Assembly: GCA_045532715.1 (NCBI GenBank)
Contig: JAZSGM010000163.1
Span: 1-35,183, forward strand
DNA from: Clostridia bacterium
Lineage (GTDB): Bacteria; Bacillota; Clostridia; UBA1381; UMGS1253
DNA length: 35,183 nucleotides
Direction: 5' to 3'
Positions 2,512 through 31,817 of this stretch are shown in pieces. A program made the position numbers and the translations under genes. The notes beneath the pieces were generated by a model. That model did not search any database and had not been told where the DNA came from. It worked only from the letters and a program-made list of their open reading frames with translations. How positions within the stretch are numbered: position 1 is the first letter of the stretch; each line of letters opens with the position of its first letter.

Positions 2512-5500
2512 ATGAAAAAAGGAATCAGTTTGTTTTTGGCGACAATCATGCTTTTAACGCTTTTTGTGCCGGTAAGCTACGGCGCGGAAGCCAAAGAAGA
2601 TGCGCTTACTGTGATTTTGGCAGATGATTTTGAAACGCATGATACGGGAAAAGCACCGCCATACACACCTGGCGGCTGGAGCAGCGGCGCGATTAAAAAT
2701 GCACCGCGCGCATATGTTGAGTTGGATACAGATGGCAAAAATAAGGTGCTTAAGGCGTACCACGGAGATCCGACAGGCGAGCCGGGCACACGCACGCCGC
2801 GTATTGAAAAGCTGGTGCAGACCGCTGACCTTACGAAGTTTACGCTCGAATATGATATCAAGTCTTCTATGGGTGAGAGCACAATGGGCTTAGGCCTTGT
2901 GCATCCGACGGAAAACAAAAGCATTGTGAACATCAAACCCTCCTATGCTTATCCGGAGTGGACGCGTATGCGCGTTGAGTTTGATGTGGAAAAGGGCGAA
3001 GGTGCGGTATATGTCGGACGTAAAATGGAGAAAGAGTTTTCCTTTGATTTGTCCGAATATGAGCAGTTCAGAGTTCGCATTAACTTTTCGGTAAGTTCAG
3101 AGGATAACAGTTGGGTGATGATTGATAATGTTATGCTCACAACGCCGGATGAAATCAAGGGCGGCATCATCGGCCTGGACGGTGAAAGCGTAAACTGGGA
3201 TCAGGTGAAGCTGAAGGAAGAAGAAAAGACGGGTATGCTCGAGGTAATGCGCAAGAGTCACCCGCGTCTGTATACTACGGATTGGGCGCTTTTAAATAAG
3301 AAAGCAGAAACGGATGATGTTTGCAAACTCTGGCGTGACAACATTATTGCTGCCGGTGAAGCGCGCATCGGTACAACGCCGACCAAGTATTTCAGAAACA
3401 GCAGAAACAATTTAAATGACTGTTCATCGTCTTTCCGTGGCGCGACCATTCCGCTTGCAGCAGCGTATGCCCTGACAAAGGATAAGCGCTATAAGGACAG
3501 ACTTTACGAAGAATTAGAGTACGTCGGCAACTGGCCGGACTGGGGCGCAGATGCGTATCTTTGTACGGCACATAACATTTTAACCTTTGCGGTTTGTTAT
3601 GACTGGCTGTATAATGACTGGACAGAGGAAGAAAGAGAAAATATTCTCGGTTGGCTGATGGAAAAGGGTATCCGCGAAGCGGTGCTCGGTTATGAGGGGC
3701 ATGCGAAGGGGACGGTATGGCCGAATTCCAAATCCAACTGGAACAATGTATGTAACGGCTCGAATCTGGTTGCGGCAATTGCAATTGCAGATGAATATCC
3801 GGATGTAGCGGACTACATTTTACATCATGCGGCAGAGAGCTTGCCGAAGTGCTTCCACGAGGTGTCTGCAGACGGAGCGTATGCCGAGCCAATCAACTAC
3901 TGGGACTATGGTATGCGTTATCAGGTTAAGGCAATGGCGGCGCTCGACAGTGCTTTATTAGACGGAAAAACCTTGCCGGAGTGCCTCGACTTTTCGGACG
4001 AAACCGGCTTTGACAATTCGGGTGACTTCCCGATTTACTACAATGGTATTACGGCGGCATTTAACTATGGTGATGCTGACCCGGGTATGATTGTTTCGCC
4101 GATTATGTATTACTTTGCGAATAAATATAACAAGCCGCAGTATGCATGGTACAACCAATATATGTATGAAAATAGTCCGTATGTATCGCACGAATCGGGC
4201 AAGGAAGCGGTTTGGTCGCTTTTGTGGTACGATCCGGACAACGCGAGTTTGCCGGAGGAGGGCTTTGCACTCGATAAATACTATCAGTCCAAAGAATCTC
4301 TCGGCGTAAACGGCATCTCGATGCGCTCGTCATGGACGGACCAGGATGCGCTTTACATTGCAATGCGTGCAGGTGACCAAAAAGCGTCGCACTCTTCGCT
4401 GGATGCGGGCGGTTTCGTTCTTGACTGGGCAGGAAAGCGATTTGTGCATATGTACGGCAGACGCGTAGCGGGGCAGGCGTCTGTTTACGGCTGGCCGAAC
4501 TACCATACGAAAAAGGCGAGCGGACACTATTCGTACTACCATTGCCGTGCAGAGGCAAATAACACGATTATCGCAAATCCGGTGCAGGACGGCGCCGATA
4601 TGAACATCACCTATTTTGCAGAGCTGCTTGAAGGCAAGAGCTCGGCAAATACAGCGTACGGCATCATCAATATGACTGATACAAATGCAGATTTCGAGGA
4701 TGCAAAGCGCGGTCTGATGATGACGGACAACCGCGAGGTTGTTATTATTCAGGATGAAATCAAGGCAAACAAGCCGTCGGAATTTTATTGGTTTGCAAAT
4801 ACGAAGGCGGATATTACAATTGCAGAGGACGGCAAAAGTGTGCTTCTCGATATGGACGGCGATAAGATGCTCGTGCGTATTACGCAGGGTCCGGCGGATG
4901 CAAAGCTTGGCGTTATGATGTCGCAACCGCTGCCGACTTCTCCGAATCCGTCGATTCAGCCAATGCTCGATGAACAGAAGCTCTATATTCACATGGAAGA
5001 CGTGAAGGACTTGAAGCTGACTGTGGAATTTGTTCCGCTGAAGGCGGGCGAAGCAATTCCGGCGCCGCAGCCGGTTAAGCCGCTTTCCGATTGGAGCGTA
5101 GATGAAAACGATGAAATGCTGACGAGTCAGAAGCTCGGCGATGTGGTTGCACTCAAAGTAGATAACCCGAATGCGTATGCAAAGGGTGCAAAGACCTATG
5201 TAGACACAACCAATTTAGAGATTGCACCGATTGTGCAAAACGGCAGAACACTTGTGCCGGTGCGCTTTATTGCAGAAAACTTCGGCGCAAAGGTCGGTTG
5301 GGACGATGCAACCCAGACGGTTTCTTTAAAGACACTTGGCAAGGAAATTACATTGCAAATCGGCAGCAACCTTATGATGGTCGGCGACAGCCAGGTAACT
5401 CTGGATGTGCCGGCGCAGACCGTTGGCGGCAGAACGCTCATTCCGCTGCGTGCGCTTGTTGAGGCACTCGGCAAAGAGGTGCTTTGGGACGACAGAGGTC

Positions 5501-6552
5501 TTATCGTTATCGGTAAGGATGTCCTTGGAATGGACAAAGATACCATCGACAAAACGGTAGCGCTTTTGGATACACGTATTCAGTATGGCGATAAGGAGCT
5601 TACATTCTTTGACAGTGAAGTTTACGAATACGACATTGCACTTGCGAAGGGCGAAAGCGTACCGGAGGTGCGCGTGCTCTCGGACAGCGAAAGCAGCATA
5701 GTGCAGGGGAATCCTGCGGTTGTAACCGTGGGCGGTAAGAGCTACACACTGCGCTTTGCGGAAAATCCGTTTGACGGTCTTTTGGGCACGGGCTCGGAAG
5801 GTATTCTGAGTACCCTCAAGCTTACGATTGAGGGTGTGACAACGGATGCTGGCTATCAGACCTATCTCGATGTAGCGGATGTTACATCTTCGATTGAATG
5901 GGATGAAAAGTATCAGCCGAGCGGCACGATTGACGGTGTTATCAGTGATGATACCGCAAACCGCTGGTCGGCAGACGGTATGGGCAACTGGATTTGCTAC
6001 GACCTCGGCAGTGTGAAGAATATAAATTCCATTGCAATTGCAGGTTATAAGGCAGAGCAGCGTGCTTACACCTTCGCAGTTGAAATCTCCGCTGACGGTA
6101 CAAATTGGGAAAAGGTGACGGATGCGCAGACCAATGCCGGTAAGCAGGTCGATGTATTTGCGCTCGGTGATAAGCGTGCACGCTATATCAAATTAACCGG
6201 TACACGCGTATCGACCGGTACATGGCTCGGTATCAACGAGGTGCGCATTTATGAGAGCGCGAAGATGATGGAAGACGACCAGTCGCTTTGGAATCTGAAT
6301 TTTAATAAAGAAGGTATCAGCGGCAAGGTCGGAAGCAGCGTAAAGCTCGCTGTTCTGGGCGCGGATAAAAACGGTGCAGCGCTTGCGGTAAATGTGGCAG
6401 ATGTTACATTCGGCAGTATGGATGAAAGCATTGCCACTGTAGATGCTGCGGGCAATGTAAAGCTGGTCGGTGCAGGTGAAACAAGCATTTATGCAGAAGT
6501 CAGTGTCATCGGCATGAAAAAGCGTGCTACCATTACGGTAACGGTACAATAA
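2512..6552 (+). CDS. Secreted multi-domain heparinase II/III-superfamily polysaccharide lyase-like protein, paralog 1
   Basis: Sec signal peptide; jelly-roll module (DDFE...IDNV); catalytic module with HPRL, NWNNVCNG, DGAYAEPINYWDYG, FNYGD, HSSLDAGGFVLD; copper-amine-oxidase-N-type module (PIVQNGRTLVPVRFIAE...GRTLIPLRALVEALG); discoidin/CBM32 (RWSA..WICYDLG...INEVRIY); Ig-like Big_2 tail (SIATVDAAGNVKLVGAG). Confidence 0.85.
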   Translation: MKKGISLFLATIMLLTLFVPVSYGAEAKEDALTVILADDFETHDTGKAPPYTPGGWSSGAIKNAPRAYVELDTDGKNKVLKAYHGDPTGEPGTRTPRIEKLVQTADLTKFTLEYDIKSSMGESTMGLGLVHPTENKSIVNIKPSYAYPEWTRMRVEFDVEKGEGAVYVGRKMEKEFSFDLSEYEQFRVRINFSVSSEDNSWVMIDNVMLTTPDEIKGGIIGLDGESVNWDQVKLKEEEKTGMLEVMRKSHPRLYTTDWALLNKKAETDDVCKLWRDNIIAAGEARIGTTPTKYFRNSRNNLNDCSSSFRGATIPLAAAYALTKDKRYKDRLYEELEYVGNWPDWGADAYLCTAHNILTFAVCYDWLYNDWTEEERENILGWLMEKGIREAVLGYEGHAKGTVWPNSKSNWNNVCNGSNLVAAIAIADEYPDVADYILHHAAESLPKCFHEVSADGAYAEPINYWDYGMRYQVKAMAALDSALLDGKTLPECLDFSDETGFDNSGDFPIYYNGITAAFNYGDADPGMIVSPIMYYFANKYNKPQYAWYNQYMYENSPYVSHESGKEAVWSLLWYDPDNASLPEEGFALDKYYQSKESLGVNGISMRSSWTDQDALYIAMRAGDQKASHSSLDAGGFVLDWAGKRFVHMYGRRVAGQASVYGWPNYHTKKASGHYSYYHCRAEANNTIIANPVQDGADMNITYFAELLEGKSSANTAYGIINMTDTNADFEDAKRGLMMTDNREVVIIQDEIKANKPSEFYWFANTKADITIAEDGKSVLLDMDGDKMLVRITQGPADAKLGVMMSQPLPTSPNPSIQPMLDEQKLYIHMEDVKDLKLTVEFVPLKAGEAIPAPQPVKPLSDWSVDENDEMLTSQKLGDVVALKVDNPNAYAKGAKTYVDTTNLEIAPIVQNGRTLVPVRFIAENFGAKVGWDDATQTVSLKTLGKEITLQIGSNLMMVGDSQVTLDVPAQTVGGRTLIPLRALVEALGKEVLWDDRGLIVIGKDVLGMDKDTIDKTVALLDTRIQYGDKELTFFDSEVYEYDIALAKGESVPEVRVLSDSESSIVQGNPAVVTVGGKSYTLRFAENPFDGLLGTGSEGILSTLKLTIEGVTTDAGYQTYLDVADVTSSIEWDEKYQPSGTIDGVISDDTANRWSADGMGNWICYDLGSVKNINSIAIAGYKAEQRAYTFAVEISADGTNWEKVTDAQTNAGKQVDVFALGDKRARYIKLTGTRVSTGTWLGINEVRIYESAKMMEDDQSLWNLNFNKEGISGKVGSSVKLAVLGADKNGAALAVNVADVTFGSMDESIATVDAAGNVKLVGAGETSIYAEVSVIGMKKRATITVTVQ

Positions 6553-6570
6553 AACGAAAAAACAATAACG

Positions 6571-6604
6571 GGGGCAGGCGCCGGTTTTTGGCACCTGCCT
6601 TTTC
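6571..6604 (+). terminator. Intrinsic terminator after lyase 1
   Basis: GGCAGGCGCC...GGCACCTGCC stem (one mismatch) followed by TTTT. Confidence 0.65.
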
Positions 6605-6605
6605 G

Positions 6606-6764
6606 CACTTTTGTCCATAAAAACGCATCATTTTCCATTGTAATTGTGTTCGGAAACTGTTATATTGATATTGAGCGTATAAAAAAGAACGCGTTTTTGG
6701 CAAAAAAAGGCCCTAAAGAAGGCAAAAACGGTTCTTTTGTTTTGCGGAGCAGGTATGCTATAAT
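6606..6764 (+). promoter_or_regulatory. Tandem promoters with upstream direct repeats for lyase 2
   Basis: P1: TCCAT repeats 20 bp apart (6614, 6634) abutting TTGTAA-17-TATATT (6638-6666). P2: extended -10 TGCTATAAT (6756-6764), preceded by GGCAAAAA repeats 22 bp apart (6699, 6721). Confidence 0.45.
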
Positions 6765-6802
6765 TAAATTATAATTGTAATATAAACAAGGAGTGTGACA
6801 GT

Positions 6803-9800
6803 ATGAAAATAAGATATGTGCGAATTCTCGGTATGGTGCTTGCACTGGTGATGGTGCTTTCAATGCTGCCGATGCAGGCATTTGCCATCAAGGTGGTCTT
6901 AAAGGATCTGGACAAGCCGGAATTGACCGAAGACAAGCTCGTGATTATGCGCGAGGACTTTGAAAAAGGTACGGTTGGCAAGAACATCACCACGGGCGGT
7001 ATGGGCTTTACGACCGGTGCTTACGGCGTGCAGGCGGCAATGAATATTACCGAGGAGGAAGGCGGCAATAAGTATTTAAAGGCTTATCACGGCGACCCTT
7101 CCGAGGATAAAACCCGTAACCCGCGCGTGGAAAGATACATTCCGACGGCGGGACTTACGCAATTTACGGTGGATTTTGATGTTATGTCGTCTATGGACGA
7201 AACGAATATGAGTGTCAGCATCATGAAGGCAAAGACCAACGAAAGTCTTGCGCCTTTAAAGACGCCGTACAAATTTGATAAGTGGACACACATTAAGATT
7301 GTTTGCGAGATTGAAAATCAGGAGGCTACGGCAACTGTATATGCAGATGGCAAGGAGGATAGCGTACATAGCTTCTCTATTGCGGGCATTGACAATATCG
7401 GTATCCGCTTTGCCAGCATTGTACAGCCGGATTCGAGCTGGGCGGCGATTGACAATGTGCTGATTACAACGACGAATCTGGATTTGGGTGGTATCGTCGG
7501 CTTGGATGGCGTGACCGTAAACTGGAATAAGCTGCCGGAATCTGATGTGCCGTCTACGGGCTTTTTGGATGTAATGAACCAACAGCATCCGCGCATTTAT
7601 GTCACCGATTGGGATGTAATCAAGCAAAAGATTGCGACGGACGAAAACTGCAAGGCTTGGTACGATCAGATTATCCGCCACGCGGACGCGCAGGTCGGTA
7701 CGCCGACGGTGGAATATTACAGAAATGCGCGTAACACCGTAAACGATGCGACAACGAATTTTAAGCGTTATATCATTCCGGTTGCGGCGGCATATTGCTT
7801 AACCGGGGAACAGAAATACTTAGATAAGGTATATCAGGACCTTGTAACGGCAGGTACATGGCCGGATTGGGGTCATGATGCTTACCTTTGTACGGCACAT
7901 ATGATGTTTGCCTACGGCGTGTGCTATGACTGGCTGTACAATGCTTTTACACCGCAGCAGCGTGAAAAGGTCATCGAAGCATGGATGAAGAACGGCTTTA
8001 CTGCGGCGGTGCAGGCATATGAAGGCTACGGCGTCGGCACGGGCTGGATTAACGCATCCAATAACTGGGGTATGGTTTGCCACGGCTCGAATATGGTTGC
8101 GGCAATTGCGATTGCAAACGACAAGCCGGAGCTTGCAAACTATATCTTAGCGCAGGGCGCAATGCGTATCCCGAAAACCTTTGATGAAATTTCGGCAGAC
8201 GGCGGCTATGCAGAAACGCTTGGCTACTGGGATTACGGTGTACGCCATCTCGTAAAGATTATGGCGGCGCTCGATTCTTCGGTTTTGCCGGGCAAGAGCA
8301 TCCCGAGTGTACTTGATTTCAAGGGTGTAACGGGCCTCAACAATTCCGGTGATTTTCCGATTTACTACAACGGTACAACCGGTGCATTTAACTTCGGTGA
8401 CGGTACGCTGGAAATTCAGCACACACCGATTATGTATTATCTGTCTACAAAGTACAACAAGCCGGAATACACATGGTATAACCTGGATATCACAACCCAT
8501 CCGAAGGCAAACTCGATTTCTGCGCAGGGGGCAGTACTTGCGCTGATGTGGTTTGACCCGAGCATGAACAAAGCGCCGGAGGCAGGCTTTAAGTTAGATA
8601 AATTCTATTCCTCGACGGAAAAGTACGGTACAAACGGTATTTCGATGCGTTCGTCGTTTGAGGACCCGGATGCGCTCTTTATCGCAGCGCACGCAGGTGA
8701 CGAAACCATGTCGCACTCCAACCTTGATGCCGGCGGTTTTGTGCTGGATTGGGCGGGTAAGCGCTGGGTATATATGTACGGCAGAAATACCCGCGGTATC
8801 ACGGATTGCTACGGCTGGCCGAATTACAATACAAAAACGGAAGAGGGCAGATATCAGTATTACATTACCCGTGGTGAAGCGAACAACACCTTCATTATTA
8901 ACCCTAAGCCGGGCAAGCCGGATATGTACTATCAGTATTTTTCCGAGGTTTCCAAGTATGAAGCCGGTGTGAATACTTCTTACGGCGTTATCAATATGAC
9001 ACCGACAAATGAGGATTACGAAGCTGCACAGCGTGGTATTATGCTCACAGGTAACCGCGATGTTGTTGTGGTGCAGGATGAAATTAAGGCAAAGGCACCC
9101 TCTGAGATTTACTGGTTTGTAAATACAGATGCTGAAATTACCATTGCAGAGGACGGCAAAAGTGCCCTTTGGGAAATGGAGGGCGATCGGATGCTTGTCC
9201 GTATTACCTCCGGCCCTGCAGATGCAAAGTTTGGCATTATGCCGACAGCGCCGCTGCCGACGAGCCCGGACCCGGACATTCAGCCGGATTTGGAAGGTCA
9301 TAAGATGTTCATTCATATGACCAATGTGACAGAAACGACTTTGACGGTGGAATATGTGCCGCTGAAGGAAGGCGAGGGGATCCCGGCGCCGCTGCCGGTG
9401 AAGGCAATTGCTGACTGGACAGTCGACAACGGCGCAGAAAAGACAACGAGTCAGAGCTTGAGCGGCGTAGTTGCGCTGAAGGTGGATAACCCGAACGCTT
9501 ACGCGAAGGGCGCAAAGACTTACGTAGATACTGCAAATCTTGACATCAAGCCGATTGTACAGAACGGCAGAACGCTTGTGCCGGTGCGCTTTATCTCCGA
9601 AAAGTTCGGCGCAAGTGTCGGTTGGGATGATATAACGCAGACCGTAACCGTAAAGACAAAGACACTGAATATCTCTTTGCAGATTGGTTCGACGCAGATG
9701 CTGGTCAACGGCGAAGCGGTAACGCTCGATGTACCGGCACAGACCATTGGCGGCAGAACACTGATTCCGCTGCGTGCGCTTGTAGAAGCACTCGGTAAGC

Positions 9801-10881: not shown

Positions 10882-10921
10882 AAAAAGGTCGCAGAATTAT
10901 TTTTGGTTCTGCGACTTTTTT
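10882..10921 (+). terminator. Intrinsic terminator after lyase 2
   Basis: GTCGCAGAA...TTCTGCGAC stem followed by TTTTTT, with an A tract upstream. Confidence 0.8.
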
Positions 10922-10951: not shown

Positions 10952-10986
10952 GAAGGCAACTTAAATTCAAAACGGGAGTGATTGCG

Positions 10987-12889: not shown

Positions 12890-13195
12890 AAAAAGACCGT
12901 CAAAGCGCGTTATCCCAAGGGATACGCGCAGTGAAATTCGCCCTGAAGAGCGAGTGGTATACGCCTGTCGGCGTGTGATATATGTTCTGTCGAACATGTG
13001 ATATATTTCCTTGCAGGAAGTGTTATGGAAAAAAACCGTCTCACAGAGACGGCTTTTAATCATTTACATCCGATTTATCGGATATTTCACATTTGCGAAG
13101 CAAATATATCACTGCGAAGCAATATCACTTGCCGCATAGCGGCAAATATCACCGGTGGTTATCCATAGGGATAGCCACCATATGACGGTCTTTTT
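12890..13195. repeat. Inverted composite hairpin-array element (REP/BIME/MITE-like)
   Basis: Terminal inverted repeats AAAAAGACCGTCA (12890-12902) and TGACGGTCTTTTT (13183-13195). Left arm hairpins are separated by GTGATAT-like heptamers and right arm hairpins by the complementary ATATCAC. Confidence 0.8.
13029..13057. terminator. Central bidirectional terminator-like hairpin inside the element
   Basis: AAAAAAA-CCGTCTC-ACA-GAGACGG-CTTTT between the convergent lyase 3 and araC genes. Confidence 0.6.
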
Positions 13196-14018: not shown

Positions 14019-14103
14019 AAAGTCAAAATCTTACGAAAAAAAGTCAAATCTATTCTTGAGTTTCGCTGGATTACATTATATACTTGTATTGGTGAAAAGT
14101 CAA
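14019..14103. promoter_or_regulatory. Overlapping divergent promoters (araC / MATE) with AraC-type direct repeats
   Basis: Minus strand: TTGACT (14103-14098)-17-TATAAT (14080-14075). Plus strand: TTGAGT (14056-14061)-17-TATACT (14079-14084). AAAGTCAAA direct repeats at 14019 and 14040 (21-bp spacing) lie just upstream of the plus -35. Confidence 0.7.
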
Positions 14104-14148
14104 TATTGGACGACAAAAATTCGTTGGACAACTATCGGGAGGGGCAAA

Positions 14149-19867: not shown

Positions 19868-19896
19868 TTGACTTCAATTTTTACGGATGTTATAAT
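19868..19896 (+). promoter_or_regulatory. Sigma-A-type promoter for lyase 5
   Basis: TTGACT (19868-19873), 17 nt, TATAAT (19891-19896), with TG extension. Confidence 0.7.
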
Positions 19897-24685: not shown

Positions 24686-24697
24686 TTCAACAAAAAT

Positions 24698-24727
24698 GAA
24701 AACACCTTTCTCCGGAAAGGTGTTTTC
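24698..24727 (+). terminator. Intrinsic terminator after lyase 5
   Basis: GAAAACACCTTTC-TCCG-GAAAGGTGTTTTC. Confidence 0.85.
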
Positions 24728-24781: not shown

Positions 24782-25432
24782 ATGCGTAATGAAGTAATAG
24801 AAGCAATAGAAAAGGAAAAATTAATTGTTATTGTCCGCGGGGTGGAAAAAGAAAAGCTTTTGCCGCTTTGTGAGGCAATGTATGCAGGCGGTATCCGCCT
24901 TCTGGAAATTACCTATGATGCATCCGGCAAGGTAACGAGCGAGGAAACGGCGGAAAACATCCGTATGCTGTCAGAGGCGTTTGCAGGCAGAATGTACATC
25001 GGTGCAGGTACGGTGCTGACCGAAGCACAAGTAGAGCTTACCAAAAATGCCGGCGGCAGCTTTATCATTTCGCCGAACACGAAGGAAGCGGTCATCAAAA
25101 AGACGGTCGGGCTGGGTATGGTTTCCATGCCGGGCGCACTTACGCCGACGGAAATTGAAGCTGCGCACGAGTACGGCGCAGATTTTGTGAAGCTTTTCCC
25201 GATTACGAGCTTCGGCCCGGACTATGTAAAAGCAGTGAAAGCACCGCTTAGCCACATTAAGCTGACCGCGGTGGGCGGCATCAATGAGGAAAATATGCCG
25301 GTATACTTAAAGGCAGGTGTGTCCGGCTTCGGCATCGGCACCAATATTGTCAATAAAAAGCTGGTTGAGCAGGAAGACTGGACTGCGATTACCGCGCTTG
25401 CAAAAAGGTATGTTGCGGCGACAGAGGCGTGA
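24782..25432 (+). CDS. eda: 2-keto-3-deoxy-6-phosphogluconate / KHG aldolase
   Basis: Motifs IVIVRG, GGIRLLEIT, IGAGTVL, FIISP, PGALTPTEI, VKLFP (Schiff-base Lys) and AVGGI. Confidence 0.93.
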   Translation: MRNEVIEAIEKEKLIVIVRGVEKEKLLPLCEAMYAGGIRLLEITYDASGKVTSEETAENIRMLSEAFAGRMYIGAGTVLTEAQVELTKNAGGSFIISPNTKEAVIKKTVGLGMVSMPGALTPTEIEAAHEYGADFVKLFPITSFGPDYVKAVKAPLSHIKLTAVGGINEENMPVYLKAGVSGFGIGTNIVNKKLVEQEDWTAITALAKRYVAATEA

Positions 25433-25483
25433 GTGTATGGCGTTACAGATGGTTTGGTACGAAAATGTTTCGTTGGGATATTC

Positions 25484-25512
25484 TTGACATTTGCGATTTC
25501 GACTGATATCCT
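25484..25512 (+). promoter_or_regulatory. Promoter for the ceramidase-like gene
   Basis: TTGACA (25484-25489), 17 nt, TATCCT (25507-25512), with TG extension. The -10 lies in the first copy of a tandem repeat. Confidence 0.55.
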
Positions 25513-25544: not shown

Positions 25545-25567
25545 AAAATCATACAGGGGGCATCACA

Positions 25568-26914
25568 ATGGAAAACTATACAAATTGCAACATTAAATGC
25601 GGTTTTTACGAGTTGGATATTACACCCTTTCTGGGCGAACATATTCCGGGCTATTCAAGTATCCGCATTGCAGACGGCGTAAAAAGCAAGCTTTCGGTGA
25701 AAGCACTTGCGGTAGGTCATAGCGAGGTGGAGACTGTAATTATTGCTATTGACGGCATTCGTACAACGACGGAGATTTGCGATGGTATTTACAGGCGCGT
25801 GCTGGAGCTTGTGGGTGTTGCGCAGGAAAAAATCCTGGTTGCTGCTACGCACAATCATACTGCGGCGACGTATTTTGATAACAAAATTCAAAAAGAGGAC
25901 CCGTTTTATACACAGTTTTTAATTCGTCGTGGCGCGGATTGCGCTGTAATGGCAATAAAGGCGATGGAGGAGGGAACCATTCGCTATGGTTGCGGAAAGA
26001 CGGAGAACGTGGCGTTTATCCGCAACTATCGACTCAAGGACGGCGCAATCCGAACCAATCCGGGCGTTTTAAATCCGGAGATTGTAGCGCCGATCGGGCA
26101 ACCGGATGAGGATTTTCCTTTTATGCTGTTTTATAACAAAGACGGAAAGCCGCTCGGTGCACTAAGTAGTTTTTCACTCCATCACGATACAGTAACCGGC
26201 ACAGAGTACTGCGCAGACTTTTCCGGTGCACTTGCAGACGAATTAAAACAAGCGTACGGTCGGGATTTTGTCAGCGTGTTTCTTGCCGGATTTTGCGGCA
26301 ATGTAAACCATATCAACGTAAATCTGCCGGTGGAGGAATGGGAGCGCCCGGTTTATTTGCATATCGGCAAGACGTTATCTCGCGTATTACAAGAAAATGT
26401 GCCGCAGGCACGCAAGATGGAAACAACCGTGGTGCGCTCGGCAAAACGCACATTCGAAATCGAACAAAGAAAGGTTTCTCCGGAAAAGCTTGAGGAGGCA
26501 AAAGAATTATTAAAATTAGATCCTGCCACCTTGGGCAAGCCGCTCGGCAAATATCCTGAGTCGCCGGCGTTTAAACGCGCAAAGGCGCCCGTGCTCATTG
26601 ATTACGCGAAAACGCAGGATAAGCCCTGTACAGTGGTTATTCAGGCAATCCGCATCGGCGACTGTATAATTTATGCACTCTGCGGCGAAATCTATGTAGA
26701 ATTCCAGCACTACCTTAAGGAAAATTCGCCTGCGACATTTAATATGTTTTCGTCTTTATCCAACGGTAGTTTCTATGGCTATTTGCCTACGCAGGATATG
26801 TACGAGGTGGAGACGCTTTATGAAGCTCAGCTGCCCTCTGCAAAATTGAAAAAGGGTAGCGGTGAATTTCTCGTAGAGCAACTGGTAGAGATGGCAAAGG
26901 TGCTTATGAAATGA
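25568..26914 (+). CDS. Neutral/alkaline ceramidase-like putative metallo-amidohydrolase
   Basis: Motifs DITP...GY, ILVAATHNHTA, HHDT, ADFSG, GFCGNVNH, GEIYVE and NGSFYGYLPT are typical of the neutral ceramidase N-terminal-like family. No signal peptide. Confidence 0.7.
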   Translation: MENYTNCNIKCGFYELDITPFLGEHIPGYSSIRIADGVKSKLSVKALAVGHSEVETVIIAIDGIRTTTEICDGIYRRVLELVGVAQEKILVAATHNHTAATYFDNKIQKEDPFYTQFLIRRGADCAVMAIKAMEEGTIRYGCGKTENVAFIRNYRLKDGAIRTNPGVLNPEIVAPIGQPDEDFPFMLFYNKDGKPLGALSSFSLHHDTVTGTEYCADFSGALADELKQAYGRDFVSVFLAGFCGNVNHINVNLPVEEWERPVYLHIGKTLSRVLQENVPQARKMETTVVRSAKRTFEIEQRKVSPEKLEEAKELLKLDPATLGKPLGKYPESPAFKRAKAPVLIDYAKTQDKPCTVVIQAIRIGDCIIYALCGEIYVEFQHYLKENSPATFNMFSSLSNGSFYGYLPTQDMYEVETLYEAQLPSAKLKKGSGEFLVEQLVEMAKVLMK

Positions 26915-26921
26915 ATGATGC

Positions 26922-26949
26922 AAAGCAGTGGCACAGGCTACTGCTTTTT
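26922..26949 (+). terminator. Intrinsic terminator
   Basis: AAAGCAGTGGC-ACAG-GCTACTGCTTTTT. Confidence 0.75.
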
Positions 26950-27000
26950 GCTTTGGCAGAATAGTGCAAAAAGTTAGCTGAATGATGCTATGTGTTTTTA

Positions 27001-27113
27001 TTGCAATTTGCACAATGCAGTGTTAAAATCAAATTAAGTGTTTGTGCAGGTTACAAAATGACATAAAAAAGTGATTTTTTTACATTGCATTTTATGCGCG
27101 TACCTTGTAAAAT
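27001..27113 (+). promoter_or_regulatory. Two candidate sigma-A promoters for lyase 6
   Basis: TTGCAA-17-TAAAAT (27001-27029, TG-extended) and TTGCAT-17-TAAAAT (27085-27113). Confidence 0.5.
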
Positions 27114-27164
27114 TAAAGTAATCAATGTAGGGTGAAATAGAATCTGAACAGGAGAGTGATAGGT

Positions 27165-30100
27165 ATGAAAAAGAAGGTTTTAAGCATTTTGCTTGCCTGC
27201 GTGATGCTTGTATCGCTTTTACCGGCAGTCGGCATGGCGGCAGAGGAGCGCATTGTCCTTTTTGAAACGGACTTTGAGTCAGAAACAGCAGGTGCAAATC
27301 CAACAAAATCCGGATTTGACAATGTTGTGTCGACGGATGTTGCGTGCTTTAAGGTTGTCGACGATGAAGACAATCGGGCACTCAAGGCATGGCACGGCGA
27401 CCCGACGGCGGAAGGTGAGAAGGCGCGCGGGCCGCGTATGGACATCAACGTATCCACCAAAGGGCTTACGAACCTGCGCTTGGAGTACGATGTAAAGAAC
27501 AGCGGCGGCGAGACCTCGTTTAAGGTTTATTTCACCGGCGCAAACAGCGGTAAAAACGCAGGTACAATCAATGCGCCGTACGAGTTTAAGAAGTGGACGC
27601 ATATCATAATTGATATGGATGTGTCTGCGCAGAAGGCGACTGTTTATGCAGACGGTGAAAAGGCAACAACGGCAACGCTTAAGTTTTTGGATGAAGCAAC
27701 CGTTTATATGCGTCTCGCCGCAACCGTTGAGCTCGACGGCAGTTGGGTAATGCTCGATAATGTGAAGCTGACTACAACGGATAAAGGCTATTCCTTAAAT
27801 CAGGGCATGAGCGCAGAGGATATCCAGGGCGAATACAATGCAGCAGATGCGGTAGCGGAAAGCGGCGATGTTGTAACGATTCTTGATGTCAACTTTGAAG
27901 ACCACGAAATCGGCAGCCTGCCGCAGTATAAAAAGGACGGCGGCTTTACGACCGGCGCAGTAACGGATGTTGCTTGTATGCGCGTAGAAGACGATAACGG
28001 CAACAAGGTCATCCGCTGCTATCAGGGCGACCCGGTAAACTATCCGGAAACACGCTCGCCGCGCTTGGAGCGCTCCGTAACAAAGAACGGGCTGAAGAAA
28101 ATGACAATCGACTACGATGTAAAGTCGAGTCTTGGTGAAACTATTTTAAATATCGATTTTTACCCGACCTCGGGCGGTAAGTATCTTTGCAGATTAAAGC
28201 CGCCGAGTGAGTTTAAGGAATGGACACACGTAAAAATCCGCTGCGATTTTGAAACGATGAAGGCGGATATTTATGTCGGCGGCAAAAAGCTGACAACAAA
28301 AAATATTGCATGGGGCGATGAAACGAGCTTTATGATTCGCGTTTCTGCAGCTTGTGCAATTGACGGCAGCTATGTTATGCTTGACAACTTCAAGATTACC
28401 TCTCCGGATTTAGAGCTCGGCGGTGCCGTGTCGGTTTCCGGCGACAAAATCTACTGGGATAAGTTAAAGATTGACCCGGCAACGAAAACCGGTATGCTCG
28501 AGGTTATGCGTATGGAGCATCCGCGTATTTTCGTGACGGACTGGGATGCGGTTCGTGCAAAGGCAGATTCGGATGAGGACTATAAGCACTTTAAAAACAA
28601 TCTCCTTGCAACGGCAAACGGTGTTTTAAATGCAGAGCCGACTGTTTATATGCGCGGAAGCACGGGCACGATTAACGGCCCTTCGACAACGGCAAAGGAT
28701 AATATGGTTACACTTGCGGGTGCGTATCAGCTGACCGGAGATGTGCGCTATAAGGACAGACTTTACGCTGAGCTTGAAGCGGTCGGCAACTGGCCGGATT
28801 GGGGATCGGATGCATTCTTGTGTACGGCGCATTTAAACCTTGGTTTTGGTATTGCGTATGACTGGCTCTATCACGAATGGACACCGGAGCAGAGAAAGAA
28901 TATCGAAGGCTGGCTCATGGAAATGGGGCTTTCGCAGGCGGTGCTTTCCTACGAAGGCTTCATCGCCGCAGGCTGGGCAACAGCAGCATCGAACTGGAAC
29001 AATGTATGTAACGGCTCGAACCTCATTGCGGCGCTCGCAGTTGCAGATACGCAGCCGGATGCGGCAGATTATATTTTTGCAAAGGTAGCAAAGTCGATTC
29101 CGTTTATGTATGAGGAATTGACAGCCGACGGTGGCTACTGTGAGCCGCTTGGTTATTGGGACTACGGTATCCGCCATCTGGTAAAGACCATGGCTGCACT
29201 CGACAGCTGTTTAAAACCGGGTGAAACCCTGCCGACGTGCCTCGATTTTTCGACGGTAACCGGTCTTGACAACACGGGCGATTTCCCGATTTACTACAAC
29301 GGTGCAAGATACGGCTTTAACTATGGTGACGGCGAATCCGCATTTGAAACCACACCGATTCTGTACTACCTTGCAACGAAATTTGATAAGCCGCAATACG
29401 CTTGGTATAATACCTATATGTACAAAAACAATCCGATGGTATCGCAGTATTGGGGCAGAAATGCAATGTGGAGCCTCTTGTGGTACGATAAAGCACATGC
29501 GGAGAGCGCAGGCACAAATTTCCCGCTGGACAAGTTTTATAACGCAGAAGTTGTCGGCGGACCGAAGGCACTTTCGATGCGTTCGTCCTTTACCGATGAT
29601 GATGCGCTCATCGTGATGGCGATTGCCGGCGATATGGAGGCAGGACATTCACATCAGAATGCCGGCGGCTTTATCCTCGATTGGTCAGGCAACAGATGGG
29701 TACATATGTACGGCAGAACTGTACCGGGGAAAAGTGGCACACCATACGACTGGGATAACTATTTCTTATCGGTATGGGAAGGCGGCAGGTATGACTACTA
29801 TCATACCCGCGGCGAAGCAAACAATACGATTATTGCAAATCCGCAGCAGAACAGAGCGGATATGAATATCGACTATGTGACAAAGCTCGACCGCTACGAA
29901 TCGGGCACATCCAAGGCGTTCGGCATCATGGATTTGACCGATACAAACAAAGATTACCTCTCTGCAAAGCGCGGCTTTATGCTCACGGACAACCGTGAAA
30001 CGCTTGTGATTCAGGATGAAATCACGGCGACAAAGCCGAGTGAGTATTACTGGTTTGCAAACACAAAGGCGGAAATCACAATCGCGCCGGACGGCAAGAG

Positions 30101-31817
30101 CGCACTTTTGGAAATGAACGGCGATAAGATGCTCGTGCGCATCACGCAGGGACCGGCAGATGCAAAATTGGGCATTATGCCTTCGCAGCCGCTTCCGACT
30201 TCGCCGGACCCGGATGTACAGCCGGATATTGATGAGCATAAGCTGTTTATTAACGTAAAGAATCAGCAGAACCTGCAGCTGACGGTTGAATTTGTACCGC
30301 TCGGCGAGGGAGAGGGTATCCCGGCGCCACAGCCGATTGCCTTACTGGATAAGTGGACGGTTTCGGATGCACCTGCCATGACAACGGAAAAGACGCTCGG
30401 CGATGTGGTTGCATTAAAGGTAGACAACCCGAACGCTTATGCAAAGGGTGCAAAGACCTATGTAGATACGGAAAATCTTGATATTAAGCCGATTGTCGAA
30501 AATGGCAGAACGCTCGTTCCGGTGCGCTTTATTGCAGAAAAATTCGGTGCACAGGTCGGTTGGGAGGATGCAACGCAGACTGTAACCGTGAAGGTGGATA
30601 CGAATTTGATTACATTGCAGCTTGGCTCCAATCAGATGGTTGTCAACGGCAATGCAATTTTGCTCGATGTGCCTGCAAAGGAAATCGGCGGCAGAACGCT
30701 TATTCCGCTCCGTGCACTTGTAGAAGCGCTCGGCAAGCAGGTGTTCTGGGATGACAGAGGCCTTATCTTAATCAGTGACGCCGCAGCAAATTACGATGCG
30801 GCTACGATTGATAACATCATCGACCTTTTGGATATCCGCGTGCAGGTGAATGGCAATGAAGTTAAGTTCTTCGACAGCGAAATCTACGAATATGATGTAA
30901 AGCTTGCAAAGGGTACGGCAGCTCCGGTTGTAACGGCAAGCTCCGATAAGGGTGCGACTGTGGTACAGGGCAATCCGGCAACGGTAACCGTAGGCGATAA
31001 AACCTACACCTTCCGTTTTGCTGAAGATGTATTTGAAGGCGTGCTCGGTACAGGTAGTGCCGGCGTAGTCAAGAGTTTGAATCTCTTTGTGGATAACGGC
31101 TCGGTTGCAAATTACCAGACCTATCTTGACATCGCAAGCGCGTCCAGCTCGATTGAGTGGGATGAAAAGTATCCGATGACCGGTTCGTATGACGGCATCA
31201 TCAATGGCTCCGTTACGCAGAACCGTTGGTCTGCAAACGGCGAAAATCAGTGGATTTCCTACGACCTCGGCGCAGAAAAGAATCTGCACTCGATTGCGAT
31301 TGCGGGTTATAAGTCGGATGGACGTTCGTATACCTTTAAGATTTCCGTATCGAATGACGGTGCAAACTGGACAACGGTAAATGAGGCGGCAGTTACCGAA
31401 ATCGGCGTAGACCGTACGGTGATTCAGCTCGGTGATGTAAAAGCAAGACACATCCGTCTCGATGGCTTGAAGGCAACGAATACGACCTGGATGGGTATCA
31501 GCGAGGTGCGTATTTACGACTCGGCACAAATGGAAGCAGACGACCAGACTTGCTGGAACGCATACTTCTACACAAGCTCTATGATGGGTACGGTTGGACA
31601 GACGCTCAAACTGTGCATCGAGGGCGAAAGCGCACTCGGCGAAATCCTGCCGGTAAGCTTTAACGATGTGAAGCTGACAAGCCTGAATCCGGAAATTGCT
31701 TCGGTAGATGCTTTGGGGAATGTAACCTTCCATAAGGCGGGCACGACACGCATTCGCGCAGAAGCAATGATTAACGGTATACTCAAGACAACCACCATCG
31801 AGGTTGAAGTAAACTAA
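27165..31817 (+). CDS. Secreted multi-domain heparinase II/III-superfamily lyase-like protein, paralog 6 (two N-terminal jelly-roll modules)
   Basis: ATG 27165 (MKKKVLSILLAC) is preferred over GTG 27156. Two N-terminal modules. Motifs HPRIF, SNWNNVCNG, DGGYCEPLGYWDYG, HSHQNAGGFILD. Same C-terminal modules as paralog 1. Confidence 0.85.
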   Translation: MKKKVLSILLACVMLVSLLPAVGMAAEERIVLFETDFESETAGANPTKSGFDNVVSTDVACFKVVDDEDNRALKAWHGDPTAEGEKARGPRMDINVSTKGLTNLRLEYDVKNSGGETSFKVYFTGANSGKNAGTINAPYEFKKWTHIIIDMDVSAQKATVYADGEKATTATLKFLDEATVYMRLAATVELDGSWVMLDNVKLTTTDKGYSLNQGMSAEDIQGEYNAADAVAESGDVVTILDVNFEDHEIGSLPQYKKDGGFTTGAVTDVACMRVEDDNGNKVIRCYQGDPVNYPETRSPRLERSVTKNGLKKMTIDYDVKSSLGETILNIDFYPTSGGKYLCRLKPPSEFKEWTHVKIRCDFETMKADIYVGGKKLTTKNIAWGDETSFMIRVSAACAIDGSYVMLDNFKITSPDLELGGAVSVSGDKIYWDKLKIDPATKTGMLEVMRMEHPRIFVTDWDAVRAKADSDEDYKHFKNNLLATANGVLNAEPTVYMRGSTGTINGPSTTAKDNMVTLAGAYQLTGDVRYKDRLYAELEAVGNWPDWGSDAFLCTAHLNLGFGIAYDWLYHEWTPEQRKNIEGWLMEMGLSQAVLSYEGFIAAGWATAASNWNNVCNGSNLIAALAVADTQPDAADYIFAKVAKSIPFMYEELTADGGYCEPLGYWDYGIRHLVKTMAALDSCLKPGETLPTCLDFSTVTGLDNTGDFPIYYNGARYGFNYGDGESAFETTPILYYLATKFDKPQYAWYNTYMYKNNPMVSQYWGRNAMWSLLWYDKAHAESAGTNFPLDKFYNAEVVGGPKALSMRSSFTDDDALIVMAIAGDMEAGHSHQNAGGFILDWSGNRWVHMYGRTVPGKSGTPYDWDNYFLSVWEGGRYDYYHTRGEANNTIIANPQQNRADMNIDYVTKLDRYESGTSKAFGIMDLTDTNKDYLSAKRGFMLTDNRETLVIQDEITATKPSEYYWFANTKAEITIAPDGKSALLEMNGDKMLVRITQGPADAKLGIMPSQPLPTSPDPDVQPDIDEHKLFINVKNQQNLQLTVEFVPLGEGEGIPAPQPIALLDKWTVSDAPAMTTEKTLGDVVALKVDNPNAYAKGAKTYVDTENLDIKPIVENGRTLVPVRFIAEKFGAQVGWEDATQTVTVKVDTNLITLQLGSNQMVVNGNAILLDVPAKEIGGRTLIPLRALVEALGKQVFWDDRGLILISDAAANYDAATIDNIIDLLDIRVQVNGNEVKFFDSEIYEYDVKLAKGTAAPVVTASSDKGATVVQGNPATVTVGDKTYTFRFAEDVFEGVLGTGSAGVVKSLNLFVDNGSVANYQTYLDIASASSSIEWDEKYPMTGSYDGIINGSVTQNRWSANGENQWISYDLGAEKNLHSIAIAGYKSDGRSYTFKISVSNDGANWTTVNEAAVTEIGVDRTVIQLGDVKARHIRLDGLKATNTTWMGISEVRIYDSAQMEADDQTCWNAYFYTSSMMGTVGQTLKLCIEGESALGEILPVSFNDVKLTSLNPEIASVDALGNVTFHKAGTTRIRAEAMINGILKTTTIEVEVN

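Follow-up and report, generated by a model that had tools for sequence, protein, structure and literature searches.

A probable lineage-specific expansion of PL35-like lyases in an uncultured gut Clostridia bacterium

Six open reading frames (ORFs) of an uncultured animal-gut Clostridia bacterium probably belong to a very large family of PL35-like lyases that is specific to this lineage. The window, the whole stretch of DNA that was analyzed, comprises 35,183 nucleotides of contig JAZSGM010000163.1. This reading, which is favored with some reserve, is a joint judgment on the family, the retention of its members at the surface, their lyase chemistry and substrates other than glycosaminoglycans. 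The expansion points to an unexplored mode of feeding on acidic polysaccharides.

Array, Fold, and Genome-wide Family

The six paralogs (A–F; Table 1) occupy positions 2512–31817, every one on the plus strand, confirming the co-oriented array that an earlier note had described from the letters of the window. All 15 of the 15 paralog pairs aligned with E = 0 and 49.2%–62.1% identity, and the similarity is therefore not due to chance. Paralogs A, B, D, E, and F are multidomain proteins with signal-peptide-like N termini. Unlike these five, C was found to have neither a signal peptide nor an accessory domain and is thus probably cytoplasmic; its orthologs in related genomes are 81%–96% identical. 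F probably begins not at the ORF start but at an ATG three codons further on. The two motifs quoted in the earlier note hold for part of the array: A, E, and F match NWNxVCNG exactly, C reads NWNNVTNG instead, and B and D do not match even the looser pattern NWN.V.NG, whereas DGxYxExxxYWxYG is present in all paralogs except C, which has DGSYAEPVGYWGY followed by A. By alignment to 8khv, the two motifs between them carry the catalytic Asn and Tyr.

Table 1. Features of the window (nucleotide positions; domain limits in amino acids)
Feature	Position	Strand	Remarks
Promoter-like site upstream of A	2449-2477		
Paralog A	2512-6552	+	1346 aa; ORF, Pfam, alignment; signal peptide, one N-domain, PL35-like core ~213-845, Cu_amine_oxidN1 901-995, middle domain, F5/8 type C 1125-1243, Big_2
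Cu_amine_oxidN1 of A	5212-5496	+	Pfam
Promoter-like site upstream of B	6638-6666		
Paralog B	6803-10879	+	1358 aa; architecture as in A
Cu_amine_oxidN1 of B	9533-9817	+	Pfam
Terminator-like hairpin behind B	10882-10921	+	strong, 18 pairs
Paralog C	10978-12882	+	634 aa; core alone
C N197	11566-11568		catalytic-equivalent, by alignment
C Y251	11728-11730		catalytic-equivalent, by alignment
C H414	12217-12219		catalytic-equivalent, by alignment
Hairpin-plus-T sites behind C	12958-12977, 13036-13052		
AraC-family regulator	13149-14006	-	Pfam; divergent from MatE and D
MatE-family transporter	14056-15501	+	Pfam
Paralog D	15535-19641	+	1368 aa
Cu_amine_oxidN1 of D	18292-18579	+	Pfam
Promoter-like site upstream of E	19868-19896	+	best: 11/12, extended -10
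Paralog E	19979-24685	+	1568 aa; two N-domains
Cu_amine_oxidN1 of E	23324-23614	+	Pfam
Hairpin behind E	24698-24727	-	minus strand only
Eda (KDPG/KHG aldolase)	24782-25432	+	Pfam
Neutral-ceramidase-like protein	25568-26914	+	Pfam, weak
Terminator-like hairpin	26922-26947		behind ceramidase-like gene
Promoter-like sites upstream of F	27001-27029, 27058-27086		
Paralog F	27156-31817	+	1553 aa; two N-domains
Cu_amine_oxidN1 of F	30468-30758	+	Pfam
Hairpin-plus-T site between F and second AraC	31829-31860		reported for both strands
Second AraC	31916-32731	-	just past array end
GFO/IDH/MocA gene	32913-34160	+	just past array end
NagB-like gene	34174-34911	+	just past array end

The core of ∼630 residues is PL35-like. 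A phmmer search with C against PDB sequences (E <= 10) returned only three distinct chains, each of them PL35 (8khv, 2.6e-44; 8khw, 1.5e-40; 9o3q, 9.7e-31), and did not detect the other toroid lyase families or DS-epimerase 1. The AF2 model of C (pLDDT 93.5, pTM 0.92) is helical in its N-terminal half and β in its C-terminal half. Foldseek placed 8khv, 9o3q, and 8khw on top (TMq 0.77–0.82; TM 0.82/0.89 against GAGase II, 8khv), followed by PL15, PL33, DS-epimerase, PL17, PL21, PL39, and PL12. The model and the Foldseek ranking thus bear out the heparinase II/III-type α/α toroid plus β-sandwich proposed earlier, and PL35, whose likeness had been recognized from the motifs, is indeed the closest family. 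The more distant relatives (PL15 Atu3025/exoHep, PL33 BtPL33HA, PL17 Alg17c, PL21 heparinase II, PL39, PL12, and DS-epimerase 1) have the fold in common (Foldseek E 1e-16 to 2e-25, TMq 0.55–0.72), and the broad profile A1 reaches the non-PL35 families at E 5e-36 or weaker versus 8e-197 for PL35. According to Table 4 of the GAGase II study, the non-PL35 toroid plus β-sandwich lyases also use His/Tyr acid/base chemistry (PMC12088678).

The PL35 glycosaminoglycan lyases available for comparison are GAGase II (8KHV), GAGase VII (8KHW), a B. caccae-type chondroitinase (9O3Q), and the founding endo-chondroitin lyase of Victivallis vadensis. Similarity to these enzymes is full length (E 1e-30 to 2.6e-44, 22%–25% identity) and extends to the fold, the Asn/Tyr/His residues and, for C, the length. 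In contrast, five of the six window proteins are 1346–1568 aa long, with Cu_amine_oxidN1, F5/8C, Big_2, and extra N-domains, and they belong to a family of ∼55 genes in a Gram-positive genome, where the known lyases are single genes.

The description as a six-paralog array understates the extent of this family, since 55 ORFs or fragments were found on 36 contigs, amounting to 208.8 kb or 7.7% of the 2.70-Mb assembly. The copy number is approximate, as the assembly is a fragmented MAG (327 contigs, 84% complete, 4% estimated contamination) and contig ends truncate 18 of the 55 ORFs. Among six genomes of the genus, a first look gave 68, 55, and 70 candidates for three and 9, 5, and 2 for the rest. 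In a FastTree phylogeny of sequences picked for similarity to C, all near-full cores (n = 45) fell into one clade (support 0.994), separate from the characterized PL35 lyases; with the degenerate metal site described below, this bears out the suggestion that the proteins are divergent enough for a new subfamily.

The number of contigs, the contamination and the truncated ORFs might mean that the count is partly a bin artifact of strain mixture or contamination, with head and tail fragments of one gene counted twice in some cases, and that the real genome has far fewer copies, most of them in the window. This is very improbable. The paralogs are too deeply diverged to be strain variants of a handful of genes (median core identity 37%, maximum 78%), and 36 ORFs are uncut and full length. 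The other two genomes of the genus with high counts (55 and 70) include one, G004, with a syntenic array. Moreover, an independent study lists 50 polysaccharide lyases by CAZy-type annotation in one uncultivated Clostridia genome from Tibetan pig gut (MAG052), 39 of them PL35 (PMC7785962). That similarly large count comes, in the available part of the report, as numbers only; the present analysis adds architecture, catalytic and metal residues, anchor, and context.

Catalytic Triad and Former Metal Site

The available text of the GAGase II study gives Asn192, Tyr246, and His401 as the catalytic residues (PMC12088678). By alignment, their counterparts in C are N197, Y251, and H414, and the triad is invariant in 57/57 rows of alignment A1 and kept in 44 of the 45 near-full cores of the genome. 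The metal site fared differently from that of the PL35 lyases. The Mn2+ ligands of GAGase II are His403, Asp405, Asp421, and His457, and in the six window paralogs the equivalents are N/S/A/H, D/N, M, and N, respectively (N416, D418, M434, and N473 in C). The complete H-D-D-H site occurs in 0/45 near-full cores of the genome versus 112/258 database homologs. Since every Mn-ligand-to-Ala mutant of GAGase II is fully or largely inactive, loss of the metal site could mean altered or reduced activity. Retention of the triad at such low core identity argues for retained catalysis. Judged from these residues, members of the clade would be metal-independent lyases that cut 4-linked uronic-acid glycosides by β-elimination. 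Analogous to GAGase II, the Asn would neutralize the carboxylate, the His would act as base and the Tyr as acid; unlike GAGase II, the Mn2+ site would have no part.

The loss of a site needed for GAGase II activity, together with an adhesin-like multidomain tail that includes Big_2 and F5/8C, would also fit proteins of this fold that are not lyases, either uronate C5-epimerases or non-catalytic surface proteins that bind glycans. Human dermatan-sulfate epimerase 1 (6hzn) has this fold (TMq 0.72) and uses His and Tyr chemistry. Against this explanation, which appears improbable, stand the near-invariant triad and the sequence neighbors of solved structure, all of which are lyases; the epimerase is reached by profile only (E 4e-5). 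In addition, an unsaturated-uronate catabolic route is encoded in the genome, with eda inside the array, and a gut fermenter would have nothing obvious to gain from epimerizing extracellular polymers.

Domain Architecture and Cu_amine_oxidN1

The usual order of domains in the proposed lyases is signal peptide, one to three variable N-domains, core, Cu_amine_oxidN1, middle domain, F5/8-type-C, and Big_2. It is complete in 30 members, and partial members keep the same order. Median pairwise identity is 21% for the N-domain, 37% for the core, and 70% for Cu_amine_oxidN1, and 33%, 40%, and 31% for the middle, F5/8C, and Big_2 modules. Cu_amine_oxidN1 is the best conserved module, with a mean column identity of 75% over 32 paralog copies and Pfam E-values of about 1e-31 to 1e-33 in the window paralogs. 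The domain (PF07833) was confirmed in 21/21 other ORFs of the genome that were tested; its fusion partners include Amidase_3, cell-wall Hydrolase_2, PrsA-like rotamases, an HtrA-like protease, three cohesin proteins, and one GH88-like enzyme. Its top conservation and its presence on cell-wall enzymes indicate that Cu_amine_oxidN1 generally marks envelope proteins of this genome and is probably the surface anchor of the lyases, a role proposed from conservation and co-occurrence. The earlier note had listed no anchors. Indeed, Pfam (E <= 0.01) gave no match in the paralogs to SLH, dockerin, or Gram-positive anchor families, and no LPxTG string was found in them, but the Cu_amine_oxidN1 module had been overlooked.

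In C. thermocellum OlpC, a protein of the cell surface, and in A. cellulolyticus ScaG, PF07833 lies beside a cohesin (PMC3413522). As in the window, it is joined there to an extracellular functional domain, but here it sits mid-lyase, with the core on one side and the CBM-like domains on the other. Excerpts on the D. reducens surfaceome likewise include PF07833 proteins and describe the domain as frequent in cell-wall hydrolases (PMC4137172). Counting against an anchor role, the same Pfam domain mediates dimerization in Paenibacillus PaSOD (PMC10432803).

With these modules, five of the six window paralogs would leave the cell via Sec and would be retained at the envelope by the highly conserved Cu_amine_oxidN1. 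Substrate recognition may reside in the fast-diverging N-terminal β-sandwich-type domains and the F5/8-type-C (CBM32-like) domain. Bacteroidota PULs and clostridial cellulosomes, with many surface-displayed, substrate-specific enzymes and dedicated regulators, are organizational analogs. Unlike them, the present system has no SusC/D pair and its lyases carry no dockerin or cohesin by Pfam, and one enzyme family is multiplied where those systems combine many.

Genomic Context and Candidate Substrates

A survey of 85 ORFs adjoining family members on 20 contigs found 14 of AraC type and 20 that are carbohydrate-active (GH78, GH106, GH95, GH29, GH20, GH109, GH2, GH43, and GH88-like, two each of GH3, GH4, and PL22-like, plus esterases and deacetylases); only one encodes a solute-binding protein. 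GH20, GH109, GH29, and GH95 are also compatible with host glycans. Elsewhere in the genome are nine PF07470 (GH88/GH105-like) hits, KduI split across two contig ends, PfkB kinases, one adjoining a KduI piece and another an Eda paralog, and, in all, four Eda copies, which makes the link to Eda drawn in the earlier note plausible. Unsaturated uronates could pass via KduI and KDG kinase to Eda, and the core-only C probably completes the breakdown of oligosaccharides once they have been imported into the cytoplasm. To speak of a utilization system as such goes too far for the window, where Pfam recognized neither a sugar importer nor a GH88/GH105 (unsaturated-uronyl hydrolase) gene.

The most likely substrates are acidic, non-sulfated heteroglycans of various kinds that contain rhamnose, fucose, or hexosamine, with microbial capsules or exopolysaccharides and plant pectic or gum glycans as candidates rather than glycosaminoglycans. 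That the bacterium lives in the hindgut and specializes on hyaluronan, chondroitin, or heparosan-type chains of its host, as the characterized PL35 GAGases would suggest, is unlikely. All characterized PL35 enzymes act on glycosaminoglycans, one also on alginate, and the catalytic triad is identical to theirs. The F5/8-type-C module is present, and CBM32 modules bind Gal and GalNAc-type sugars; NagB-like, GH20, and GH109 genes are present as well. PL35 is reported to be the most abundant PL family in yak feces and to be enriched there versus rumen (PMC7547465), which would fit host glycans. On the other hand, the sulfatase family PF00884 has only two hits in the genome, in frames of 591 and 644 aa, a size that would fit LtaS-type enzymes. 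Most of the clade has other residues at the cationic subsite positions of GAGase II: Arg88 is Asn in 64/86 clade members versus Arg in 171/217 outside sequences, and His136 is Ala or Ser in 64/86 versus His in 198/217 outside. Rhamnosidase neighbors (GH78, GH106) do not fit glycosaminoglycans, fucosidase neighbors also weigh against this reading, and ∼55 diverged paralogs with variable N-domains, often with their own AraC, far exceed the number of glycosaminoglycan backbones. Under the preferred heteroglycan reading, specificity probably differs between single paralogs or small groups of them, each induced through a separate AraC-type sensor.

Within the array, Pfam confirms the AraC, MatE, and KDPG aldolase genes reported as interleaved, but the second AraC and the NagB-like gene lie beyond its end. 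Most paralogs had been credited with their own promoter and terminator, and the data would allow this. Candidate sites do lie near A, B, C, E, and F, but promoter/terminator-like totals barely exceed those of shuffles (36 versus 28.3 ± 6.2, 31 versus 23.4 ± 5.0, 28 versus 22.7 ± 5.5, and 20 versus 19.0 ± 4.8). D starts 33 nt downstream of the MatE gene without a site of its own and is probably co-transcribed with it. The AraC/GFO-IDH-MocA/NagB-like triad (31916–34911) has a second copy on contig C273 at 55%–82% identity and may be a unit independent of the array.

A lyase-like family related to PL35

Six plus-strand ORFs (A-F, in order) were found along the window, as the earlier note had claimed, and the encoded proteins are 49.2-62.1% identical to one another, with E = 0 in 15/15 pairs. 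The five long paralogs (A, B, D, E, and F; 1346-1568 aa) begin with a basic and hydrophobic stretch followed by an Ala-x-Ala-like site. Each gives Pfam matches to Cu_amine_oxidN1 (109-113 bits, cut-off 24.2), F5/8 type C, and Big_2, while their central region is matched by Hepar_II_III_C and DUF4962 only, at sub-threshold or borderline scores. An N-terminal domain of ∼190 aa is present in a second copy in E and F. The third paralog, C, has a hydrophilic N terminus, and its upstream frame is open for just eight further codons. C alone matched no Pfam family and lacks Cu_amine_oxidN1, and an NCBIfam search of A, C, and E returned no family. The proposal that most of the genes have their own promoter and terminator is compatible with the data: roughly four of the six have sites in the expected places, and the scan totals are barely above those of shuffled sequence. 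Contigs obtained from the reads of four animal-gut DNA runs were all short (90-99% likeness), and none spans the stretch.

Coordinates of features in the window and of related loci on other contigs
Feature	Position	Strand	Description
g01	282-1322	-	tandem paralog of g02
g02	1344-2399	-	tandem paralog of g01
A	2512-6552	+	ORF
B	6803-10879	+	ORF
C	10978-12882	+	ORF, 634 aa, shared central region only
Gut-1 motif	12929-13009	+	Rfam RF01706, 54.6 bits
Gut-1 motif	13079-13154	-	Rfam RF01706, 57 bits
D	15535-19641	+	ORF
E	19979-24685	+	ORF
Promoter-like site	25484-25512		upstream of ceramidase-like gene
Ceramidase-like gene	25568-26914	+	448 aa
F	27156-31817	+	ORF
Triad	31916-34911		AraC, GFO/IDH/MocA, NagB-like
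Triad, second copy	C273:13447-16510		same genome
L058	C132:7448-9184		578 aa, same genome
L015	JAZRUW010000028.1:5995-7896		core-only ortholog of C

To place the core, C was compared with all PDB sequences (phmmer, E ≤ 10), and three chains only were found: 8khv (2.6e-44), 8khw (1.5e-40), and 9o3q (9.7e-31). The first two are GAGase II and GAGase VII, both of family PL35 (PMC12088678), and the third is, by its PDB name, a 'PL35 chondroitinase'. A 57-row profile of the core (A1) matched PL35 at 8e-197, the next family being PL15 at 4.8e-36. The AlphaFold2 model of C, calculated from a 57-row alignment (mean pLDDT 93.5, pTM 0.92), is helical in its N-terminal half and beta in its C-terminal half. 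Foldseek ranked 8khv, 9o3q, and 8khw as the best three PDB matches (TMq 0.82, 0.77, and 0.82; TMt 0.89 for 8khv and 8khw), followed below PL35 by PL15, PL33, dermatan-sulfate epimerase, PL17, PL21, PL39, and PL12. As modeled, C thus has the N-terminal (alpha/alpha)n toroid and C-terminal antiparallel beta-sheet domain that characterize PL35. The toroid and beta-sandwich fold predicted in the earlier note, and the likeness to PL35 that it suggested, were both borne out.

The array represents only a small portion of a very large family. A search with C against the window's own genome (2.70 Mb in 327 contigs, a fragmented bin, 84% complete with 4% contamination) gave 55 matches. With an HMM of the six cores and a six-frame ORF set (E < 1e-10), the family amounts to 55 ORFs or fragments on 36 contigs, 18 of them cut by contig ends and one a small piece; this copy number is approximate because additional head-only or tail-only fragments lie at contig ends. 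Together they comprise 69,607 residues, or 208.8 kb, equivalent to 7.7% of the assembly. The 36 uncut ORFs range from 634 to 1747 aa (median 1526), and C is the only one that lacks the signal peptide and all accessory domains.

Catalytic residues, metal site, and phylogeny

In GAGase II, Asn192 (with Asn191) acts as neutralizer, Tyr246 as acid, and His401 as base, and Mn2+ is bound in the C-terminal domain by His403, Asp405, Asp421, and His457, alanine mutants of which are completely or substantially inactive (PMC12088678). In a HMMER alignment of C with 8khv, where the chain numbering equals that of PMC12088678 minus 22, the catalytic residues Asn191, Asn192, Tyr246, and His401 correspond to N196, N197, Y251, and H414 of C. 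N197, Y251, and H414 are invariant over the 57 rows of A1, and the Asn/Tyr/His set is kept in 44 of the 45 near-full genome cores. The two motifs picked out in the earlier note hold the catalytic Asn and Tyr. In contrast to the shared triad, the Mn2+ site of GAGase II is replaced: its four ligands, in the order listed, align with N416, D418, M434, and N473 of C, the corresponding positions in A-F are N/S/A/H, D/N, M, and N, and an H-D-D-H site occurs in 0/45 near-full genome cores. We infer that the paralogs are lyases whose activity would be independent of metal.

A FastTree tree was calculated from 303 cores, 45 from the genome and 258 from searches, a sample biased to relatives of C; a Spirosoma protein that its source names DUF4962 (P0106) served as root. 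All genome paralogs fall in one 86-tip clade (support 0.994). The metal site is degenerate in 84/86 tips of this clade, and at least three of the four ligands are kept in 165/217 cores outside it; an acidic residue at the Asp421 position is found in 2/86 inside versus 206/217 outside. Two subsite positions are also altered. That of GAGase II Arg88 is Asn in 64/86 of the clade and Arg in 171/217 outside, and that of His136 is Ala or Ser in 64/86 and His in 198/217, respectively. Among the 41 database members of the clade, 35 are longer than 900 aa and 24 carry the Cu_amine_oxidN1 module, as detected with our own HMMs. A-F lie in a 22-tip subclade (support 1.0), in which paralogs of seven other contigs are interspersed. 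Within it, C is nested next to D and so probably derives from a longer protein that lost its flanking domains.

Sequence, fold, and catalytic residues place the paralogs with PL35, and their metal site, subsite residues, modular build, and clade set them apart as a distinct subfamily of it, in agreement with the new subfamily proposed in the earlier note. CAZy families are defined by sequence, so loss of the metal site marks a subfamily and does not exclude the proteins from PL35. No member of this subfamily was found among the solved PDB structures or among the characterized PL35 enzymes in the accessible parts of the PL35 literature.

Among 1.84 billion cluster representatives, phmmer with C found 4557 proteins at E ≤ 1e-3, of which 1413 pass E ≤ 1e-30. 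The top matches are often 1000-3000 aa long, and one metagenome protein of 3123 aa (P0123) contains two complete PL35-like cores, residues 4-645 and 1540-2179. Profile A1 gave a match at E ≤ 1e-20 in 22 of 40 related genomes, or 23/41 counting the window's own. Within the genus, first-look candidates, which are not copy numbers, are 68 (the window's genome), 55, and 70 in genomes of 2.0-2.7 Mb, and 9, 5, and 2 in genomes of 1.4-1.7 Mb. A syntenic array is present in a sister genome, and a named record with an ortholog of C at 96% identity has the same neighborhood as the window. In a word-indexed search, orthologs of C were 81-83% identical, after which identity dropped to ≤34%. One core-only ortholog (L015, 82% identity) has no large paralog within 6 kb on either side, so the C-type, probably cytoplasmic form also exists outside arrays. 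The named relatives are recorded as 'MAG: Clostridia bacterium', one of them from goat colon, and near-identical words to the window sequence turn up in animal-gut metagenomes from 14 studies.

PL35 is a young family, and to our knowledge its few characterized members are single-domain Gram-negative enzymes acting on glycosaminoglycans. The branch described here is deep and Firmicute centered, with the triad kept, the metal site lost, a multidomain build, and a share of about 8% of a genome, and it provides dozens of candidates for new lyase specificities. Its expansion has already been glimpsed in print as counts. In Tibetan pig gut, one uncultivated Clostridia MAG has 50 polysaccharide lyases, 39 of them PL35 by CAZy-type annotation (PMC7785962), and in yak faeces PL35 is the most abundant lyase family, with 447 genes, enriched in faeces over rumen (PMC7547465). 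Nothing on this expansion beyond counts was found in the accessible parts of the literature on PL35 lyases and on PL35 in Clostridia. These surveys read the counts as 'chondroitin degradation', the pig enzymes being taken to act on chondroitin (PMC7547465; PMC7785962). If the branch acts on other glycans, such functional read-outs are wrong.

The conserved Cu_amine_oxidN1 domain

The complete architecture, present in 30 members, consists of a signal peptide, one to three N-domains, the core, Cu_amine_oxidN1, a middle domain of ∼120 aa, F5/8 type C, and Big_2. Median pairwise identity (n = 30) is 21% for the N-domain, 37% for the core, 33% for the middle domain, 40% for F5/8 type C, and 31% for Big_2, compared with 70% for Cu_amine_oxidN1, the mean column identity of which is 75% over 32 aligned copies. 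The constancy of this domain while the catalytic and recognition parts diverge is most simply explained by one common contact partner. Laminin_G_3 was matched in 2/7 copies of the N-domain (best E 2.7e-6), the profile of which also gave a weak match (E 0.021) to the PDB entry 4d0q, which bears the name 'hyaluronate lyase'; no Pfam match was found for the middle domain.

The Cu_amine_oxidN1 family, PF07833, was confirmed in 21/21 other ORFs tested in this genome. Its partners include an N-acetylmuramoyl-L-alanine amidase, a cell-wall hydrolase, an HtrA-like protease, a transglutaminase-like protein, a nuclease, and a GH88-like enzyme, as well as two PrsA-like rotamases and three cohesin proteins; many of these fusion proteins must stay at the Gram-positive envelope. 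A PF07833 domain lies beside cohesin in OlpC, a cell-surface protein of C. thermocellum, and in ScaG of A. cellulolyticus (PMC3413522), whereas here it is part of lyase-like proteins. Conservation, envelope fusion partners, and the precedent of OlpC and ScaG together argue that Cu_amine_oxidN1 retains the lyase-like proteins at the envelope. Against this, the Pfam-assigned PF07833 domain of Paenibacillus PaSOD mediates homodimerization (PMC10432803). A two-copy complex prediction for Cu_amine_oxidN1 (alignment A3) scored 0.02 against a mark of 0.42 and speaks neither for nor against self-association. On balance, envelope retention is somewhat favored as the role of this module, although a search of the literature on PF07833 and Cu_amine_oxidN1 found no direct test of cell-wall binding. 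The branch carries a candidate new anchoring module and is a concrete test case for its role on Gram-positive surfaces.

None of the six proteins has an SLH, dockerin, or LPxTG signal, as the earlier note had stated. Elsewhere in the genome there are 46 SLH matches and about nine dockerin matches, and three proteins, on contigs C102, C15, and C259 (L039, L040, and L044), combine cohesin with Cu_amine_oxidN1. These matches point to a small cohesin-dockerin system in which the proteins for anchoring carry the module also found in the lyases.

Locus context and candidate substrates

A polysaccharide utilization locus of Gram-positive bacteria combines a degrading enzyme, a carbohydrate transporter, and a regulator in one place. 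The window has enzymes and regulators, namely six lyase-like genes and two AraC genes; no ABC, PTS, or MFS carbohydrate importer was found in it, and its sole transporter is a MatE-family protein. The genes interleaved with the array encode an AraC regulator, the MatE transporter, Eda, and a weakly ceramidase-like protein, and F is followed by the second AraC regulator, a GFO/IDH/MocA oxidoreductase, and a NagB-like protein. On 20 other contigs, 85 ORFs flanking paralogs were scanned. AraC regulators account for 14/85 and carbohydrate-active proteins for 20/85; one is a solute-binding protein of sugar transport. The carbohydrate-active neighbors include rhamnosidases (GH78 and GH106), fucosidases (GH95 and GH29), GH20, GH109, GH2, GH43, a GH88-like enzyme, two each of GH3, GH4, and PL22-like proteins, esterases, and deacetylases.

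Genes for the catabolism of unsaturated uronates are also present in the genome, consistent with the breakdown of lyase products through Eda that had been proposed. It has nine matches to PF07470 (GH88/GH105-type), eight over the cut-off; of these proteins, one lies just downstream of a paralog and one carries Cu_amine_oxidN1. In L058, Cu_amine_oxidN1 (aa 94-195) is joined to a GH88/GH105-like barrel; this would be a candidate envelope-tagged unsaturated-uronyl hydrolase, able to act on the lyase products extracellularly. KduI is present, split over two contig ends, PfkB kinases lie directly beside a KduI piece and beside an Eda paralog, and there are four Eda-type genes, one inside the array.

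A glycosaminoglycan, one of the substrates considered in the earlier note, is disfavored. There are only two sulfatase-family matches in the genome, which together with the changed Arg88 and His136 positions argues against glycosaminoglycans and, more generally, against sulfated substrates. The number and divergence of the paralogs are also far beyond what the handful of glycosaminoglycan backbones would call for. The best inference from this context is that the substrates are diverse non-sulfated uronate-containing heteroglycans, for example the capsules and exopolysaccharides of microbes or the pectic and gum glycans of plants. The GH20, GH109, GH29, and GH95 neighbors would suit host glycans too, as would the reported enrichment of PL35 genes in faeces relative to rumen (PMC7547465). 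A more specific proposal, which we regard as rather unlikely, is that a small-genome lineage of gut Clostridia forages with a single family: ∼55 metal-independent PL35-type lyases, sharing a Cu_amine_oxidN1 envelope dock and each with its own recognition domains and AraC regulator, would harvest uronic-acid capsules and exopolysaccharides from neighboring microbes, a hyper-diverse class of glycans. If true, this would be a Gram-positive counterpart to the PULs of Bacteroidota, aimed at microbial glycans, and would add a subfamily to PL35 and a class to the known cell-wall anchors.

Several other elements accompany the array. The genes upstream of A, g01 and g02, encode proteins with 66% identity from a well-conserved family with 1918 homologs (E ≤ 1e-5, mostly 53-60% identical) and no Pfam domain. 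The AlphaFold2 model of g01 (pLDDT 91) is an (alpha/alpha)6 barrel most similar to terpene cyclases and to the beta subunits of protein prenyltransferases (VIA Z 17-19), and a metal site is suggested by the number of invariant His, Cys, and Asp residues. A role as the missing unsaturated-uronyl hydrolase was unsupported, GH88 (3wiw) appearing at Z 12.7 among many barrels versus 17-19 for the prenyltransferases. The product of the ceramidase-like gene, just downstream of eda, matches the neutral-ceramidase N-terminal family only weakly (E 2.4e-5, under the cut-off) and has five distant paralogs in the genome; its Atlas neighbors are clusters without names, 12-27% of whose members have PF04734. 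The second copy of the AraC, GFO/IDH/MocA, and NagB-like triad beside F is 55%, 60%, and 82% identical, respectively, and the triad may stand on its own as a module for amino sugars or sugar oxidation, outside the lyase array. The two Gut-1 RNA motifs (gathering score 50) are inverted between C and the AraC gene, within a repeat of ∼250 nt. Five more copies of this repeat, 91-98% identical, are present in the genome (contigs C38, C184, C223, C213, and C136), and in four gut metagenomes the bin at this repeat has a contig depth 10 to 100 times that of its flanks.
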